DNA from: an uncultured Candidatus Binatia bacterium
GTDB lineage: Bacteria > Desulfobacterota > Binatia > UBA9968 > JAJDTQ01
NCBI GenBank assembly: GCA_964291295.2
Contig: OZ219754.1
Location: 2,848,001 to 2,912,000 of the forward strand
DNA length: 64,000 bases
Reading direction: 5' to 3'
Position 1 is the first letter of the stretch; the number at the start of each line of letters is the position of its first letter. Positions 10,769 through 27,132 of the stretch are shown piece by piece. The notes below the pieces were generated by a model. It worked only from the letters and a program-made list of their open reading frames with translations. It made no database searches and was not told where the DNA came from. The translations under genes and the position numbers were made by a program.

Positions 10769-12781
<2,013 letters not shown>

Positions 12782-12897
12782 GGAGAAGAGATATCACCGC
12801 GGGCGACGGGTGTGCAAAGCCGCGGCTCTCCTGGACACCGGCCGGACGAAACTGCTATGTCCTGTCTCACCATCAGCCTCCAGTCCCATCTGTCTCC

Positions 12898-14130
12898 ATG
12901 GAAAAATTCGACCTGACCATCATCGGCGGCGGCATCGTGGGGCTGGCCACGGCCATGCGCATGGCGCACCGGCATCCCCGGCTGCGCTGCCTGCTGCTGG
13001 AAAAGGAGCCGGAACTCGCCACCCATCAGACCGGCCACAACAGCGGCGTCCTCCACTCCGGCATCTATTACCGTCCGGGATCGGTCAAGGCCCGGACCTG
13101 CGTCGCCGGCAAGAAGGCGCTCCAGGAATTCTGCGACCAACACGCCATCCGCTACGACCTGTGCGGCAAGGTCATCGTCGCGACGCGCCCGGAAGAGGTG
13201 TCCCGCCTGGACGAACTGCACCGGCGGGCCCAGGCCAACGGCGTGGAGGGTGTCCGCATGATCGATCCCGGGGAGCTCCGGGAGATCGAACCCCACTGCA
13301 CCGGAATCAGGGCGCTCCACGCCCCCTTCACCGGGATCATCGACTTCGGCGCCGTGGCACGGACCTGTGCCCGCCTGTTCCGGACGGCCGGCGGCACCAT
13401 CCGCACCTCCTGCGAGGTCACGGCCATGACCCGATCGCCGGGCAGGTTCGTGATGGACACCACCGGCGAGGCCGTGGAGACACGCACGCTGATCAACTGC
13501 GCAGGGCTGTTCGTCGACCGGGTGGCGGCCATGACCCCCGGGTTCGCATCCCGTGTGCGGGGCGGCATCGACGAGCCCGTGCGCATCGTCCCGTTCCGGG
13601 GTGAATACCATCGGCTCAAGTCGGAAAGGCAGGGACTGGTCAAGGGGCTGGTGTATCCTGTACCCGACCCGCGGTTTCCCTTTCTGGGGGTGCACTTCAC
13701 CCCCACGGTCCACGGCCGCGTGGAGGTGGGCCCCAACGCGGTCCTGGCGTTCGCGCGGCAGGGCTACCGGCAGCGCGACATCAACCTGCGGGATCTGTAC
13801 GAGGTCCTTTCCTACCGCGGCTTCTGGGCCATGGCGCGAAAGCACTGGAAGACGTCCCTGCCGGAGCTCCGGCGCTCGTTCGACAGGCGCGCCTTCACCC
13901 GAGAACTCCAGCGGCTCATTCCGGAGATCCGGTCGGAGGATCTCGAATACAGCGGCGCCGGCGTGCGCGCCCAGGCGGTATCGGCCAGCGGCAGGCTGGT
14001 GGACGACTTCGTCATCGCCGAGTCCGAGGGTGCGGTGCACGTGCTCAACGCGCCGTCGCCCGGCGCCACGTCGTCGTTGGGCATCGCCGACGTCATCTGC
14101 CACACGGCGGCGAAACATCTGGGATCCTGA
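12898..14130 (+). CDS. lhgO: L-2-hydroxyglutarate oxidase family FAD enzyme
   Basis: GGGIVG, HQTGHNSGVLHSGIYY, YPVPDPRFPFLGVH, NAPSPGAT. Confidence 0.9.
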   Translation: MEKFDLTIIGGGIVGLATAMRMAHRHPRLRCLLLEKEPELATHQTGHNSGVLHSGIYYRPGSVKARTCVAGKKALQEFCDQHAIRYDLCGKVIVATRPEEVSRLDELHRRAQANGVEGVRMIDPGELREIEPHCTGIRALHAPFTGIIDFGAVARTCARLFRTAGGTIRTSCEVTAMTRSPGRFVMDTTGEAVETRTLINCAGLFVDRVAAMTPGFASRVRGGIDEPVRIVPFRGEYHRLKSERQGLVKGLVYPVPDPRFPFLGVHFTPTVHGRVEVGPNAVLAFARQGYRQRDINLRDLYEVLSYRGFWAMARKHWKTSLPELRRSFDRRAFTRELQRLIPEIRSEDLEYSGAGVRAQAVSASGRLVDDFVIAESEGAVHVLNAPSPGATSSLGIADVICHTAAKHLGS

Positions 14131-14161
14131 AGACAGGCGGCAGCACCGGGAGGCACCTGCA

Positions 14162-14689
14162 ATGCTCATACAATACAAGGGGCAGCGCCCCAGGATTTCA
14201 CCCCAGGCCTTTGTCGCTCCCACCGCCGTGCTCATCGGCGACGTCACCGTGGAGGCCGGTGCCAGCATCTGGTTCGGCGCGGTGCTCCGTTCCGACGAGA
14301 ACCAGAACCCCATCGTCATCGGCGCCCGGAGCAGCGTTCAGGACAATTGCGTGATGCATTCGGGCGAGGGGGCGGTGATCATCGAAGCGGACGTGACCGT
14401 GGGTCACGCCGCCATCATGGAGGGAGCCACGGTCCGACGATCCGCCATCATCGGCATGAATGCGACGCTGCTGGAAGATACCGAAGTCGGCGAGGAGTCC
14501 CTGGTGGCCGCCGGCAGCGTGCTGGTGCCGCACACCCGCATTCCCCCGCGCTGCCTTGCGGCCGGCAGTCCGGCGAAGGTCAAGAAAGAGATCAGCGGCG
14601 AAGCCCTGAACTGGATCAGGATGGGCTCTTCGACCTACACCGAGCTGTGCAGGAGCTACCTGGGCGGCGACTTCAAGGTGGTGGGCTGA
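14162..14689 (+). CDS. Gamma carbonic anhydrase family (hexapeptide repeat) protein
   Basis: LIGDV, IWFGAVLR, VQDNCVMH, TVGH, AGSPAK; start MLIQYKG. Confidence 0.9.
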   Translation: MLIQYKGQRPRISPQAFVAPTAVLIGDVTVEAGASIWFGAVLRSDENQNPIVIGARSSVQDNCVMHSGEGAVIIEADVTVGHAAIMEGATVRRSAIIGMNATLLEDTEVGEESLVAAGSVLVPHTRIPPRCLAAGSPAKVKKEISGEALNWIRMGSSTYTELCRSYLGGDFKVVG

Positions 14690-20378: not shown

Positions 20379-21797
20379 TCAACGAGGGAGTCGCAACGCG
20401 AGGAAAATGGTGGTGTCTTCACGCCGTATCAGAAAGAGGATGCCGCTTCCTTTCGCCAGCTTGTCGACAATCTGCCTGAAATCGCCGAGCCCGGCGATCC
20501 GTTGGCGGTCGATTTCGAGAATGACGTCGCCGACCCGGATTCCCGCCCGGTCCGCCGGGCTGCCCGACTCCACCGCCGTGACCACGACGCCGCCCCTGTC
20601 CGGCGTTCCCGGGCCACGCCGCAGGTCGGGCGTCAGTGCCCGTACGGTCAGGCCGAGCCCGCTGCCTTCCTCCAGCGCCGCCGCCTCGTCGTCACTCAGG
20701 CGGCCGATCTCCACCTTGAGCGTGACGCGACGCCCGTTGCGCACCACCGCGATGTCCACGAGGCTTCCCACCGGAGTCCGGGCCACCACCAGCGAAAGCT
20801 CGCTGGATCGGGTGACGGGAGTGTCGTCGAACGTGACGATGACATCGCCCACCTCCACTCCGGCCGACTCCGCGGGGCTTCCCTTGGCCACATTGGCCAC
20901 CAGGGCCCCGCCAGGGTCGGCCATGCCCAGCGCCTCGGCCATTTCCGCGTCGACATCCTGTATGACGACGCCCAGCCAGCCGCGGGTGACCTTGCCCTCG
21001 TCCTTGAGTTCCGAGAGCAGTCCCTTGACCAGGTTGATGGGGATCGCGAAGCCGATGCCGATGTTCCCGCCGCCGCGGCTGAAGATGGCGGTATTGACTC
21101 CCACCACCTCGCCTCGCAGATTGATCAGCGGTCCGCCCGAATTGCCGGGATTGATGGAAGCATCGGTCTGGATGAAATTGTCGTAGGGGCCGGCGCCGAT
21201 TCGACGTCCCTTGGCGCTGACGATGCCTGATGTCACCGTGAGCTCGAGACCGAAGGGATTGCCGATGGCCAGCACCCACTCGCCCACTTCCAGGGCCGCC
21301 GAGTCTCCCAGCACTGCCACCGGCAACTCGCGCTCGACGTCGACCTTGATCAATGCGATATCGGTCCTGGGGTCCCGGCCGACGACCCGGGCCGCGTGCT
21401 CCGACCCGTCCGCCAGCTTGACCGTCAGGTCGTGCCCATCTTCCACCACGTGGTCATTGGTGAGAATGTAGCCCGCGGGATCGACGACAAAACCGGAACC
21501 CACGCTGAGGCGCGGACTCGGCGACGGGCTGCGGGGAAAACGTTCGCCGAAAAAGCGCCGCCAGAAATCGCTGAAGGGATCCTCCTCGCGGAAGCGCCCC
21601 GGACCGGACGACGATTGCGTGGAAGGCGTCGAGGAAATATGCACCACCAGCGGCCGCACCTGCTTCGAGAGGGTGACGAAATCCGGCAGACTCATGCGCG
21701 TGGTGGTGCCGGCCCGGGACACCCCCGCGGCAAGCAGGACCATGCAGGCCAGCACCACCACGCGCATGCGCGCGCGTCCTTGAGTGACCGGGGTCAT
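20379..21797 (-). CDS. Do/DegQ family serine endoprotease with two PDZ domains
   Basis: GSGF, LTNDHV, DIAL, QTDASINPGNSGG, GWLGV. Confidence 0.95.
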   Translation of the reverse strand: MTPVTQGRARMRVVVLACMVLLAAGVSRAGTTTRMSLPDFVTLSKQVRPLVVHISSTPSTQSSSGPGRFREEDPFSDFWRRFFGERFPRSPSPSPRLSVGSGFVVDPAGYILTNDHVVEDGHDLTVKLADGSEHAARVVGRDPRTDIALIKVDVERELPVAVLGDSAALEVGEWVLAIGNPFGLELTVTSGIVSAKGRRIGAGPYDNFIQTDASINPGNSGGPLINLRGEVVGVNTAIFSRGGGNIGIGFAIPINLVKGLLSELKDEGKVTRGWLGVVIQDVDAEMAEALGMADPGGALVANVAKGSPAESAGVEVGDVIVTFDDTPVTRSSELSLVVARTPVGSLVDIAVVRNGRRVTLKVEIGRLSDDEAAALEEGSGLGLTVRALTPDLRRGPGTPDRGGVVVTAVESGSPADRAGIRVGDVILEIDRQRIAGLGDFRQIVDKLAKGSGILFLIRREDTTIFLALRLPR

Positions 21798-24967: not shown

Positions 24968-25456
24968 TCAGTTTCCTGAGGATTCGTTGCGCGCAGGTTG
25001 CAGCGTCCGTTCCATGAGCCAGGCGTCCTCTCCATTGTCGGAGTAGTACCCTTTCCGCAGGCCGCAGACCTCGAAACCCATTGAACGGTAAAGGGTTTGC
25101 GCCGGGTCGTTGGACCTCCTGACCTCCAGGGTCATTCGCCGCAAGCCCCGTTTCGCGGCGCTCTCGATGAGGTTCCGGAGCATGGCCCGAGCAACCCCCT
25201 GCCGCCGGCACTGCGGATGCACCGCGACGTTGTGGATGTCCAGCTCGCCGGGCAGTTCCCAGTAGACGACGTACCCGATGGGCCTGCCCTCCCGCTGGCA
25301 CAGGATAGATCCGGCATGCGCCGCCTGCAACTCCTCGAGAAAGAACTGCCGGCTCCAGGGACTGGCGAACGCCGCCGTCTCGATGGTCATGACCTCATCG
25401 ATGTCGGCGGCCGTCATGCTCCGGAGGTACAGCCCTCCACTGGCCTCTACGGACAT
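24968..25456 (-). CDS. rimI: Ribosomal-protein-alanine N-acetyltransferase (start uncertain)
   Basis: IETAAFASPWS, NVAVHPQCRRQG, LEVRRSN, RKGYYSDNGEDA. Confidence 0.9.
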   Translation of the reverse strand: MSVEASGGLYLRSMTAADIDEVMTIETAAFASPWSRQFFLEELQAAHAGSILCQREGRPIGYVVYWELPGELDIHNVAVHPQCRRQGVARAMLRNLIESAAKRGLRRMTLEVRRSNDPAQTLYRSMGFEVCGLRKGYYSDNGEDAWLMERTLQPARNESSGN

Positions 25457-25512
25457 TCGGGGAAAACCGTACGGGTGCGAACCTGACGTCGGTCTTGCGT
25501 GGTCGCGGAATG

Positions 25513-26853
25513 TCAGGTGATCCAACCCAGCCTTCCGGCGCTCTCCTTCAGCAGAAGAACGTCCAGAACCTTGCTGTTCAGACGGTGAACGAAGCCGTAG
25601 ACCCGGTCCTGCAAGGGAATGACCGTGGTGAACTCGGGCGGAAAGGCGCCGATGCTTGAGGATACCTGACGGATGCGGGTGTCCGGCAACCTGCCCTTGA
25701 CGATCAACCGGCCTTCCTTCAGCAACAGGTCATAGTCATAATCCGGCATGCGCGACGGCAGTTTCGACGCAATGGCGATACCCAGGCGCGGCACCTGGGT
25801 GGGGAACTCCAGCCGAAGATGGTAGGCCTTGCCCAGGTCTTCCATCGTGTAGGCGTGGCCGTAGCGCCGCTCGCGCTCCACCTTCTCGACGAATCGCGAA
25901 TCGTAGAATCCCTCCACGGGCACCGGGATTCGCCGCAGCAACCTGCCGCGCCGCGACAGCAACGGCCGCAGCAGCATGGCCAGCGGAACGCCGTAAAGCG
26001 CCGCGCCCACCGTGACCTGCTCCACCGGAACCGCGCTGAAGACGCTCCGGCGCAGGCGATACAACACCTCGGCCAACGCCACCAGGAAACCTGCCAGGAT
26101 GTACAGGTTGACGCCCTTGCCGAAGGCCAGGCCCAGCCCCTCCAGCGCGACCCCCACGAGGACCAGCACCACCGGATAGAGGATCATGTTGAGGATCATG
26201 TTCAGGGCCGTGGCCAAGCCGTCCACGATGCCGTGACGGCCCGCCAGCTCCGCCAGATCGTTTCGCGAGGAAGCGGGCAGGGCGCCGAGCAGCGGCTGCA
26301 ACAGCCGCAGGGTGATTCGCAACAGGCTGGAATCGCTGGTCTGGATCCGTTCCGCCCATTCGTCGAAACCCATGGGCAACTGGCCCGGGAAAACCTTGGG
26401 CTCCCGCGGTACGGGGGCCTCCTCAGGTTCTTCTTCAGGCTCTTCCGCCGGCGCGGGGCTGGCCGCGGCCACCGGAGCGGGGACCACTGCGGCGGGAGCC
26501 GCGGGCGTGGCGTCCGCCGCGGTGGCTTCCGCAGCCGGTGCCGGCGCGGGTTCCGCGGCTTCGCCGCCGGTACGGAACCTCGACTCGAACGCATCCCCGA
26601 AATCGACATCCTGGTGCAACTCCCGCGCCCGTTCGATCAGCACGGTTTCCGATTCCACGTTGTTCGGGTCCGTCACACAGCAGTCCACCGGACAAACCGC
26701 GGCACAGGCTTCGTAATCGTGGAACCCGACGCATTCGGTGCACAGCACCGGATCGATGACGTACAGGTCATCCTGTTGCGTGATGGCTTCGTTGGGACAC
26801 TCGGGTTCGCAAGCGCCGCAGTTGATGCACTCGCTGGTTATCATCGTCGCCAT
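25513..26853 (-). CDS. YfhL-type 2[4Fe-4S] ferredoxin fused to a membrane segment and a C-terminal Hsp20-like domain
   Basis: CINCGACEPECP, CTECVG..CAAVCPVDC; Ala/Pro/Glu linker; 2-3 hydrophobic helices; C-terminal beta-sandwich pattern (Hsp20 call is inference). Confidence 0.8.
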   Translation of the reverse strand: MATMITSECINCGACEPECPNEAITQQDDLYVIDPVLCTECVGFHDYEACAAVCPVDCCVTDPNNVESETVLIERARELHQDVDFGDAFESRFRTGGEAAEPAPAPAAEATAADATPAAPAAVVPAPVAAASPAPAEEPEEEPEEAPVPREPKVFPGQLPMGFDEWAERIQTSDSSLLRITLRLLQPLLGALPASSRNDLAELAGRHGIVDGLATALNMILNMILYPVVLVLVGVALEGLGLAFGKGVNLYILAGFLVALAEVLYRLRRSVFSAVPVEQVTVGAALYGVPLAMLLRPLLSRRGRLLRRIPVPVEGFYDSRFVEKVERERRYGHAYTMEDLGKAYHLRLEFPTQVPRLGIAIASKLPSRMPDYDYDLLLKEGRLIVKGRLPDTRIRQVSSSIGAFPPEFTTVIPLQDRVYGFVHRLNSKVLDVLLLKESAGRLGWIT

Positions 26854-26873
26854 GGAAGAACGCTCCTGAATCA

Positions 26874-26927
26874 GCCCCGCTCAAAGTAAGCCCCGCTCAG
26901 GATCCCGCTCAAGATCCTGCTCGGAAC
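26874..26927. repeat. Degenerate tandem repeats (cccgctca core) upstream of the ferredoxin fusion gene
   Basis: gccccgctcaaagtaa gccccgctcaggat cccgctcaagat cctgctcggaac. Confidence 0.6.
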
Positions 26928-27056
26928 GCCGGCGGGCGCGGCCCGGCTCCTGCAAGCCCTGCAAGATAAAAATAGTTGATTTTCCGGGTTTCTTCAACGT
27001 CCCGGAGCTGCTTGAAAAACCACGATCCCGTGTGTTACAAAGCTGTTGTCTTTTCG

Positions 27057-27132
27057 GGCGGCGTACCCAAGTGGTCAAGGGAGAGGTCTGCAAAACCTCC
27101 ATGCGGCGGTTCGAATCCGCCCGCCGCCTCCA
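27057..27132 (+). tRNA. tRNA-Cys (GCA)
   Basis: GGCGGCG/CGCCGCC acceptor stem, GAGGT-CT GCA AA-ACCTC, GGTTCGAATCC, U discriminator, CCA. Confidence 0.96.

Follow-up and report, generated by a model that had tools for sequence, protein, structure and literature searches.

How a ferredoxin comes to share one polypeptide with membrane helices and a crystallin-like domain, and what such a protein may do, is the question raised by an open reading frame (ORF) of 446 amino acids in a stretch of 64,000 nucleotides from an uncultured Candidatus Binatia bacterium (contig OZ219754.1, positions 2,848,001 to 2,912,000; this whole stretch is the window below). The ORF runs from ATG to stop exactly over 25513..26853 of the minus strand. 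From its N-terminus it encodes a dicluster ferredoxin of the Alvin/YfhL type, a putatively disordered arm, a conserved motif region, a predicted membrane hairpin and a beta-sandwich that, by modelling and profile comparison, is related to the alpha-crystallin domain (ACD). That these parts lie together in one real gene is near certain. As to function, we favour, with a rough probability of 0.4, a membrane-anchored scaffold derived from small heat-shock proteins (sHSPs) that would hold a mobile ferredoxin. The class is known here only from metagenome-assembled genomes, and its relatives come largely from metagenome collections.

An ORF of this kind could in principle be an artefact, in which read-through, misassembly or a miscalled gene has fused a ferredoxin gene with the gene downstream. 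Two of the best 120 database homologues, P0049 of 382 and P0060 of 304 amino acids, do lack the ferredoxin, and fragments are common among metagenome representatives. The other 118, however, are full-length at 438-476 amino acids and 49-85% identical, so that the relatives do not carry two separate genes, a case which the preliminary description of this locus had left room for. A check of orthologues and their neighbourhoods found the ferredoxin and the ACD in a single frame in seven related genomes (six with the whole architecture, G291, G263, G110, G076, G038 and G204, and one, G234, with ferredoxin, arm and ACD without the hairpin region). Also, two sequencing runs of the same study gave contigs that cover 25300-27100 without a break, one of them identical over this region and possibly the source, the other with 2 single-nucleotide polymorphisms; the ORF thus did not arise by joining pieces in the assembly. 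Every segment is conserved, the junction motif included, with a mean family identity of 85% for the ferredoxin, 69-70% for the ACD-like domain, 51-54% for the membrane part, 45-47% for the motif region and 31-34% for the linker. Taken against this, the artefact is effectively refuted. In public records the homologues are named only 'ferredoxin' or 'hypothetical protein', and a literature search found no paper on a fusion of a ferredoxin with an alpha-crystallin or HSP20 domain, nor on a Binatota ferredoxin of such kind, in line with the earlier statement that no characterised protein with this architecture is known.

The N-terminal part had been described as a YfhL-type dicluster ferredoxin, and the family models agree. 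NCBIfam NF033683 ('YfhL family 4Fe-4S dicluster ferredoxin') matches residues 1-77 with 100.6 bits against a cut-off of 86 (104.9 bits in the whole-genome scan with the same model), and a profile of 36 homologues matches the solved Alvin-type ferredoxins 2fgo (P. aeruginosa Fdx; E 2e-30, alignment reaching residue 79), 1blu and 2zvs (E. coli YfhL). The eight ligand cysteines (C9, C12, C15, C19, C38, C41, C50 and C54) are invariant in 36 of the 36 aligned homologues and form the motifs CxxCxxCxxxCP and CxxCx8CxxxCP, which are followed by a C-terminal helix and a FESRFR tail. The signatures of the AlvinFdx family, as given in the part of Elsen et al. 2010 (PMC2984482) used here, are a ligand insertion and a helical segment after the ligands. 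Both are present in our protein: the C41-x8-C50 spacing agrees with the insertion of 6-7 residues between two ligands of one cluster, and the conserved residues 55-94 after the last ligand, with a helix modelled at 69-79 by AlphaFold2 at low confidence, agree with the partly alpha-helical segment of 27-43 residues. Since the predicted local distance difference test (pLDDT) of the AlphaFold2 model is only 30-41 over residues 1-50, the assignment is taken from the sequence, by which the head domain belongs to the AlvinFdx/YfhL family and the protein as a whole is not a typical member. According to the same part of PMC2984482, an Alvin-type ferredoxin has a very low potential, deletion of its gene abolished growth of P. 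aeruginosa and its function is reported as unknown; the family is almost exclusive to Proteobacteria, and fused forms are not mentioned there.

Between the head and the C-terminal domain lie about 200 residues of very different character. The long Ala/Pro/Glu linker noticed earlier falls at residues ~95-152, where the pLDDT is below 50 in the AlphaFold2 model, and it is the least conserved part of the family and varies in length. Its only profile matches in the PDB are the Ala/Pro linkers of E2 succinyltransferases, with E values of 0.036-0.6 that do not amount to significant homology. We read this stretch of ~58 residues as a disordered swinging arm. It is followed by a motif region in which K153, F155, F163, Q186, L189, G190, L192 and P193 are invariant in the family alignment and which is modelled at pLDDT 87-88 with a beta-bridge at residue 158; the FPGxLP-type motif is retained in the ferredoxin-less short forms discussed below. 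Two further motifs may be mentioned for the arms of other members. The short forms have a conserved P-S-x-P-x-S-M-x-x-R-P inside a low-complexity Pro/Ala/Ser arm (e.g. residues ~118-128 of P0160), and the long forms L196 and L204 have a related P(V/L)(S/T)ML..P.D(I/V).ALPGP before FPGEL.

Of the 2-3 hydrophobic helices in the preliminary description, two are credible as membrane helices and the third is weak, as predicted from a family-mean Kyte-Doolittle hydropathy of 2.2 around residues 223-237, 1.5-1.8 around 250-262 and 1.2-1.5 around 280-298; the helices of the AlphaFold2 model are at 212-238, 248-266 and 288-300. The topology, for which a prediction had also been proposed, was judged from hydropathy and from Lys/Arg counts, the mean count being 3.1 after the second transmembrane helix (TM2) and after helix 3 vs 0.6 in the loop of 11 residues that joins TM1 to TM2. 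As this loop is short and uncharged and the stretches after TM2 and helix 3 are rich in Lys and Arg, the hairpin would have an N-in/C-in topology with both soluble domains in the cytoplasm. Fe-S proteins are matured in the cytoplasm. A periplasmic C-terminal domain behind three membrane helices was also considered and rejected, given the weak hydrophobicity of helix 3 and the Lys/Arg-rich stretch after it. Conserved residues N218, N222 and E262 lie within the hydrophobic helices in the family alignment. Asn and Glu inside membrane helices can drive helix association, and these three residues could do so here.

The C-terminal domain (residues 303-446) was modelled on its own, with 67 diverse relatives, and came out as seven strands and two helices with pLDDT 88.7 and a predicted template modelling score (pTM) of 0.80. 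All of its best Foldseek matches are sHSP, ACD or CS structures, with Hsp17.7 of Deinococcus (4fei) on top at E 3.8e-4, and a second structural aligner gave Z 8.6 with a root-mean-square deviation (rmsd) of 2.6 A over 96 residues to Sulfolobus hsp14.0 (3vqm). A search of 48,161 chains independent of Foldseek has only sHSP or CS proteins, by title, in its first 31 rows, the best being the ACD of Sulfolobus Hsp20.1 (4rzk; Z 8.1, rmsd 2.2, 77 amino acids). The domain thus models as an alpha-crystallin/CS sandwich that stands at Z 8.1-8.6 to archaeal sHSP ACDs, in keeping with the fold that had been suspected. As a Z near 8 can also reflect a common arrangement, a separate sequence test was made, in which hhalign compared the 67-row alignment of the domain with 32 genuine HSP20s from 30 genomes of the phylum. 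The probability was 96.7% (P 3.5e-10) over 96 columns covering residues 329-442, it was 96.6% when the 46 most distant rows were used alone, and reversed alignments as controls gave 0.4% (P 0.16). The aligned columns include the equivalents of F-x-R-x-x-x-LP and GVL-x-I-x-x-PK and reproduce motif for motif the earlier alignment to the Hsp20 pattern, which had been made by hand. CS domains score Z 6.0-7.3 in the same 48,161-chain search vs 7.3-8.1 for ACDs, a distance within about 1 Z, and the hhalign comparison was made with HSP20 only; the Pfam CS model (PF04969) does not match the protein.

The family models do not recognise this domain. Pfam HSP20 (PF00011) has no match at E<=0.1 in our protein and none in the 47 relatives scanned, no Pfam or NCBIfam model matches residues 95-446, and a family profile run against PDB sequences found no sHSP, its only matches being to the low-complexity linker. 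The domain differs from HSP20 by 16 residues inserted between strands 3 and 4 and, in the model, by a helix at the place of the loop that carries strand 6 in bacterial sHSPs. It has a signature of its own (ER-x-RRYG, MPDYDY and (A/S)FPP(E/D)F). The C-terminal I-x-I/V of sHSPs is an anchoring motif; no I-x-I motif is conserved in the family, where the tails differ by clade (..RLGWIT, ..GSQHL, ..ERSYR). In the ESM Atlas only clusters of hypothetical Binatota proteins were found, at 0.89 for this protein and 0.95 for the short form, with HSP20 clusters at 0.75-0.88, all of which are taken as leads only. By sequence profile and model, then, the domain is best described as a remote ACD homologue that forms a family of its own; as it has neither a match to the HSP20 family model nor an I-x-I tail, it is not filed as an sHSP. 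The PF00011 scan of the genome found a single canonical HSP20, elsewhere (C1:1705445).

When the phylum was sampled evenly, the ACD-like domain was found in 8 of 10 genomes from the class of the window (all but G143 and G174) and in none of the 291 others, so the protein is likely part of the core physiology of the class. Nine loci in named genome records have a match that extends through the C-terminal domain; their records are titled Candidatus Binatia, 'delta proteobacterium', Thermodesulfobacteriota, Proteobacteria and, for one locus, Verrucomicrobiia. The last (L010) encodes a full-length homologue in the same rimI-carD-ispD synteny, and its label probably reflects binning or labelling and not the true distribution.

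To see the module apart from its ferredoxin, residues 160-446 were scanned against 1.84 billion representatives, which gave 122 proteins. Of 47 that were scanned in Pfam, 17 have Fer4 domains, 28 have nothing recognisable, one has a sub-threshold unrelated match and one is a doubtful case with other domains. At least three kinds of ferredoxin are fused to the module, namely the YfhL type, a 7Fe FdxA type (P0150, P0187 and P0232, at 103-119 bits to FdxA models and just below the cut-offs) and the single-cluster Fer4_13, which is either the sole ferredoxin (P0206, P0215) or stands N-terminally to a C-terminal polyferredoxin (P0194, P0216, P0227); P0233 has the polyferredoxin without a Fer4_13 match. 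The hairpin region is also kept in P0150 and P0206. On a tree of the ACD domain, where the architecture labels come from regular expressions and are approximate, the non-YfhL fusions occupy a separate, divergent part and the ferredoxin-less short forms are one well-supported clade (100/98). Two database proteins, P0133 (starting MATVITSD, with the FTGEL motif straight after) and P0154 (starting MATMNTSE), have the first residues of the ferredoxin followed at once by the arm or the FPGEL motif, and look from their sequences like clean in-frame deletions of the ferredoxin. As all four combinations of ferredoxin and hairpin presence and absence occur, the constant core of the family is the arm motif together with the ACD-like domain.

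A second protein of the same genome bears on the role of the ferredoxin. The genome is 99% complete, and just two of its loci score above the YfhL cut-off, the fusion gene and a paralogue of 274 amino acids; the NF033683 scan found no free-standing YfhL ferredoxin in it. The paralogue is 76% identical to our protein over residues 1-141 and has an Ala-rich arm, after which comes a zinc-ribbon-like CxxC..CxxC and coiled-coil tail that is unrelated to the ACD. This architecture recurs in three related genomes (L199, L200 and L201), and other related genomes have stand-alone ferredoxin copies of 111 amino acids. Tethered YfhL ferredoxins are common and not exceptional in this class.

The repeated coupling of the module to ferredoxins could be read in yet another way, in that the ACD-like module would act as a chaperone in cis, protecting, holding or maturing an oxygen-labile ferredoxin, and the free short forms would bind free ferredoxins in trans. 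The fusions with three ferredoxin classes would fit, as would the life style of relatives that are described as aerobes in excerpts of a Binatota preprint on aerobic methylotrophy, in which low-potential clusters would be at risk. Yet the paralogue keeps the same ferredoxin without any ACD, the 111-residue ferredoxins of related genomes stand alone, the full-length model has no confident contact between ferredoxin and ACD, and the membrane hairpin is given no role. We consider this explanation improbable.

The reading we favour is the tether. The hairpin and the crystallin-like domain would together be an anchoring and assembly or docking module at the cytoplasmic face of the inner membrane, and the ferredoxin would be the mobile, electron-carrying head of a swinging arm, so that low-potential electron transfer may be kept local to membrane-proximal partners. 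The crystallin-like module would then serve as the 'address' of the ferredoxin and not as a classical soluble heat-shock protein. A linker that is long, disordered and fast-evolving would serve badly as an allosteric wire and well as a tether. No other part of the protein is as conserved as the ferredoxin, which may be expected of a carrier that has to fit several partners. The paralogue places the same head and arm on a different 'address', the only YfhL ferredoxins of the genome are both tethered, and the module has been coupled recurrently to at least three ferredoxin kinds, in different parts of the ACD tree. We also count for the tether the predicted cytoplasmic position of both soluble domains, the conserved sigma-70-like box and the Shine-Dalgarno sequence that belong to this gene itself, and a search of the window for the CIRCE heat-shock operator, which gave none.

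Several observations weigh against the tether. The module exists without any ferredoxin and therefore has a ferredoxin-independent role; 66 of the 80 loci from a metagenome scan, which was queried with ferredoxin-less relatives, match the ACD part only, and the ferredoxin-less module is found at the same rimI-carD-ispD locus. The neighbours (tRNA-Cys, rimI, carD, ispD, cysK, an acyl-CoA ligase, coaE, efp and tsaD) include no redox enzyme. In the full-length AlphaFold2 model the ferredoxin part has no confident fold and does not dock, and the fold Z scores of 8.1-8.6 are at the level where, by the warning of the tool itself, a common arrangement is possible. Finally, 15 of the 80 metagenome loci with long flanks were picked and 12 of these (leaving out L118, L124 and L167 as near-repeats) were scanned for Pfam neighbours. 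In 7 of the 12 (L116, L122, L153, L155, L156, L163 and L184), and in the genome locus L032 besides, a divergent GroEL (Cpn60) is present upstream, separated from the ACD-like gene by one or two small ORFs without a Pfam match. Such a neighbour fits proteostasis better than electron transfer, and together with the ferredoxin-less forms it favours the main rival.

This rival is a membrane holdase gated by redox state or by the Fe-S cluster, that is, an atypical sHSP whose ferredoxin would sense O2, reactive oxygen species, nitric oxide or iron and whose cluster state would control the binding of clients. Hsp33 is a parallel for a redox-gated holdase. The remote but significant homology to sHSP ACDs and the fold match are as one would expect of it, and so is the sHSP-like tripartite layout of a variable N-terminal arm with an aromatic motif, an ACD and a short tail, clearest in the short forms, which show that the module works alone. 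The GroEL genes upstream may be added, as may the HtrA-type protease in the window and the precedent of a chaperone-ferredoxin fusion in DnaJ-Fer/CDJ3-5. On the other hand, ~58 disordered and poorly conserved residues separate the would-be sensor from the ACD, the family alignment has no conserved I-x-I tail and the Pfam HSP20 model is unmatched. Its promoter box is sigma-70-like with no CIRCE element in the window, the paralogue carries the same ferredoxin and arm on a non-chaperone module, and the genome already has a canonical HSP20. On balance we regard the gated holdase as somewhat unlikely, though it is the rival to be taken most seriously.

A further reading takes the module as a platform for ferredoxins. 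Derived from an sHSP, it would assemble with itself at the membrane, and the several ferredoxins that it presents on swinging arms would make up a local hub where low-potential electrons are distributed or gated; its ferredoxin-less relatives would capture free ferredoxins through their conserved arm motifs. We find this doubtful. If it were true, the role of the Alvin-type ferredoxins, without which P. aeruginosa does not grow, could be read from the fusion as from a Rosetta stone.

The features of the gene and of its surroundings are collected in Table 1.

Table 1. Coordinates of the fusion gene, its parts and associated features (window positions except for the paralogue, which lies at locus L002).
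Feature	Coordinates	Strand	Basis
Whole ORF: ferredoxin, linker, motif/helical region, membrane hairpin (predicted), ACD-like domain	25513..26853	-	446 amino acids + stop
Alvin/YfhL-type 2[4Fe-4S] ferredoxin, residues 1-94	26572..26853	-	NF033683, PDB profile matches, invariant Cys
Disordered Ala/Pro/Glu-rich linker (putative), residues 95-152	26398..26571	-	pLDDT <50, 31-34% identity, variable length
K-x-F-P-G-x-L-P..F motif and helical LQPxLGALP segment, residues 153-212	26218..26397	-	invariant columns, pLDDT 87-88
Predicted membrane hairpin, residues 213-300: TM1 ~215-238, TM2 ~249-266, weaker hydrophobic helix ~280-298	25954..26217	-	hydropathy, Lys/Arg counts, AlphaFold2 helices
Basic connector, ERERRYG helix and divergent alpha-crystallin-type beta-sandwich (modelled), residues 301-446	25516..25953	-	model, fold searches, hhalign
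Core aligned to HSP20, residues 329-442	25528..25869	-	hhalign
Shine-Dalgarno AGGAG	26863..26867	-	9 nt 5' of ATG, from sequence
Promoter-like box TTGAAG-N17-TATTTT	26969..26997	-	alignment of 9 upstream regions
rimI-type GNAT acetyltransferase, downstream	24968..25525	-	TIGR01575, 136.8 bits vs cut-off 86.4
tRNA-Cys(GCA), divergent, directly upstream	27057..27132	+	ARAGORN; Rfam tRNA 64.4 bits
HtrA-type protease	20379..21797		Pfam scan
274-residue paralogue, locus L002	1084..1908 (= G000:C1:~2513771-2514595)	-	YfhL match

The rimI-type gene, carD and ispD lie 3' of the fusion gene in 7 of the 9 genome loci, and in the 12 metagenome loci the downstream GNAT gene is present in 9, carD in 11 and ispD in 8. 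The 5' acyl-CoA ligase and aminotransferase are shared with the closest relative only, and Flp-pilus genes were found upstream in 2 of the 12. Counted from its TTG start, the rimI-type ORF and the end of the fusion gene, stop included, overlap by 13 nt; since the matches to its family set in near residues 24-41, translation probably begins further downstream. Since the conserved synteny is shared by unrelated housekeeping genes, we take it as a sign that a core locus was inherited vertically and not as an operon-level clue to function. A functional link to rimI, with the conserved N-terminal Met-Ala as a target of acetylation, was considered and left as speculation, the synteny having unrelated housekeeping genes as well. 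Housekeeping genes of the wider window include those for the HtrA-type protease, DUF1844, cysK, tsaD, ksgA, fpg, a class A penicillin-binding protein, coaE and efp. An ORF of 579 amino acids at 12580..14319 (minus strand) matches no Pfam family at E<=1e-5.

On the 5' side, the tRNA-Cys(GCA) is upstream in 7 of the 9 aligned orthologous regions. It may be noted that a tRNA for cysteine is here divergent from a gene for a cysteine-rich ferredoxin, which is probably plain synteny. A box resembling TTGACA-N17-TAATT is likewise present in 7 of the 9, at the place that aligns with our promoter-like box. A simple consensus scan reported no promoter or terminator site, and we therefore infer a sigma-70-like box from its conservation. 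A GC-rich extra leader of ~85 nt (26872..26924 within the 5' leader), shared with the closest relative (L004) only, contains a 12-nt inverted repeat as well as short direct repeats (AGCCCCGCTCA twice, plus strand). As RNA the leader shows no unusual degree of structure (z 0.11), and the Rfam search found only the tRNA.

What the locus adds is first of all a handle on where, and with whom, an Alvin-type ferredoxin works, as every YfhL copy of this genome is tethered to an 'address' module. The two addresses are a predicted membrane-anchored crystallin-like domain and a zinc-ribbon and coiled-coil module. The profile and fold comparisons also point to a new branch of the alpha-crystallin superfamily that has diverged strongly, is missed by current family models and is repeatedly coupled to three ferredoxin classes.

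Each part of the protein can be set beside a known system. Residues 1-~80 align over the full length of the solved Alvin/YfhL ferredoxins (2fgo, 1blu, 2zvs), and the head shares their 6-residue insertion (C41-x8-C50) and helical C-terminal piece, but known members are stand-alone proteins of ~80-85 amino acids, whereas here the domain is the head of a predicted membrane protein of 446. With the sHSPs and their ACDs (4rzk, 3vqm, 4fei) the module shares the beta-sandwich, the profile homology over 96 columns and a variable N-terminal arm with an aromatic motif. It differs from them in failing PF00011, in the 16-residue insert, the helix in place of the beta-6 loop, its own signature and the lack of I-x-I, and in being fused to a hairpin and a ferredoxin. 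In the parts of the sources used here (bioRxiv 10.1101/2025.08.22.671721, PMC3564930), DnaJ-Fer proteins (Chlamydomonas CDJ3-5 and thaumarchaeal forms), whose function is unknown, likewise join a domain of a chaperone system to a 4Fe-4S ferredoxin. There it is a J domain and here an ACD, lineage and ferredoxin type differ, and the Pfam and NCBIfam matches of our protein include no DnaJ family, so this is analogy only. Ncb5or/CYB5R4 (cytochrome b5 - CS - b5 reductase), as far as the partial sources go, has an HSP20-like sandwich built into a redox protein, and its CS-b5R structure 6mv2 is among our fold matches (Z 6.9, rmsd 3.0, 81 amino acids). It is unlike our protein in being eukaryotic and soluble, in using heme and flavin and in placing the CS domain between two redox domains; it does indicate that such sandwiches can be built into redox proteins. 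Last, the Ala/Pro arms of 2-oxoacid dehydrogenase E2 chains are the swinging arms of lipoyl domains. Like the ferredoxin here, a lipoyl domain is a small cofactor domain on a long Ala/Pro-rich linker to an assembly core; this resemblance is one of composition only, and the core in our protein would be the ACD-like domain with its hairpin.

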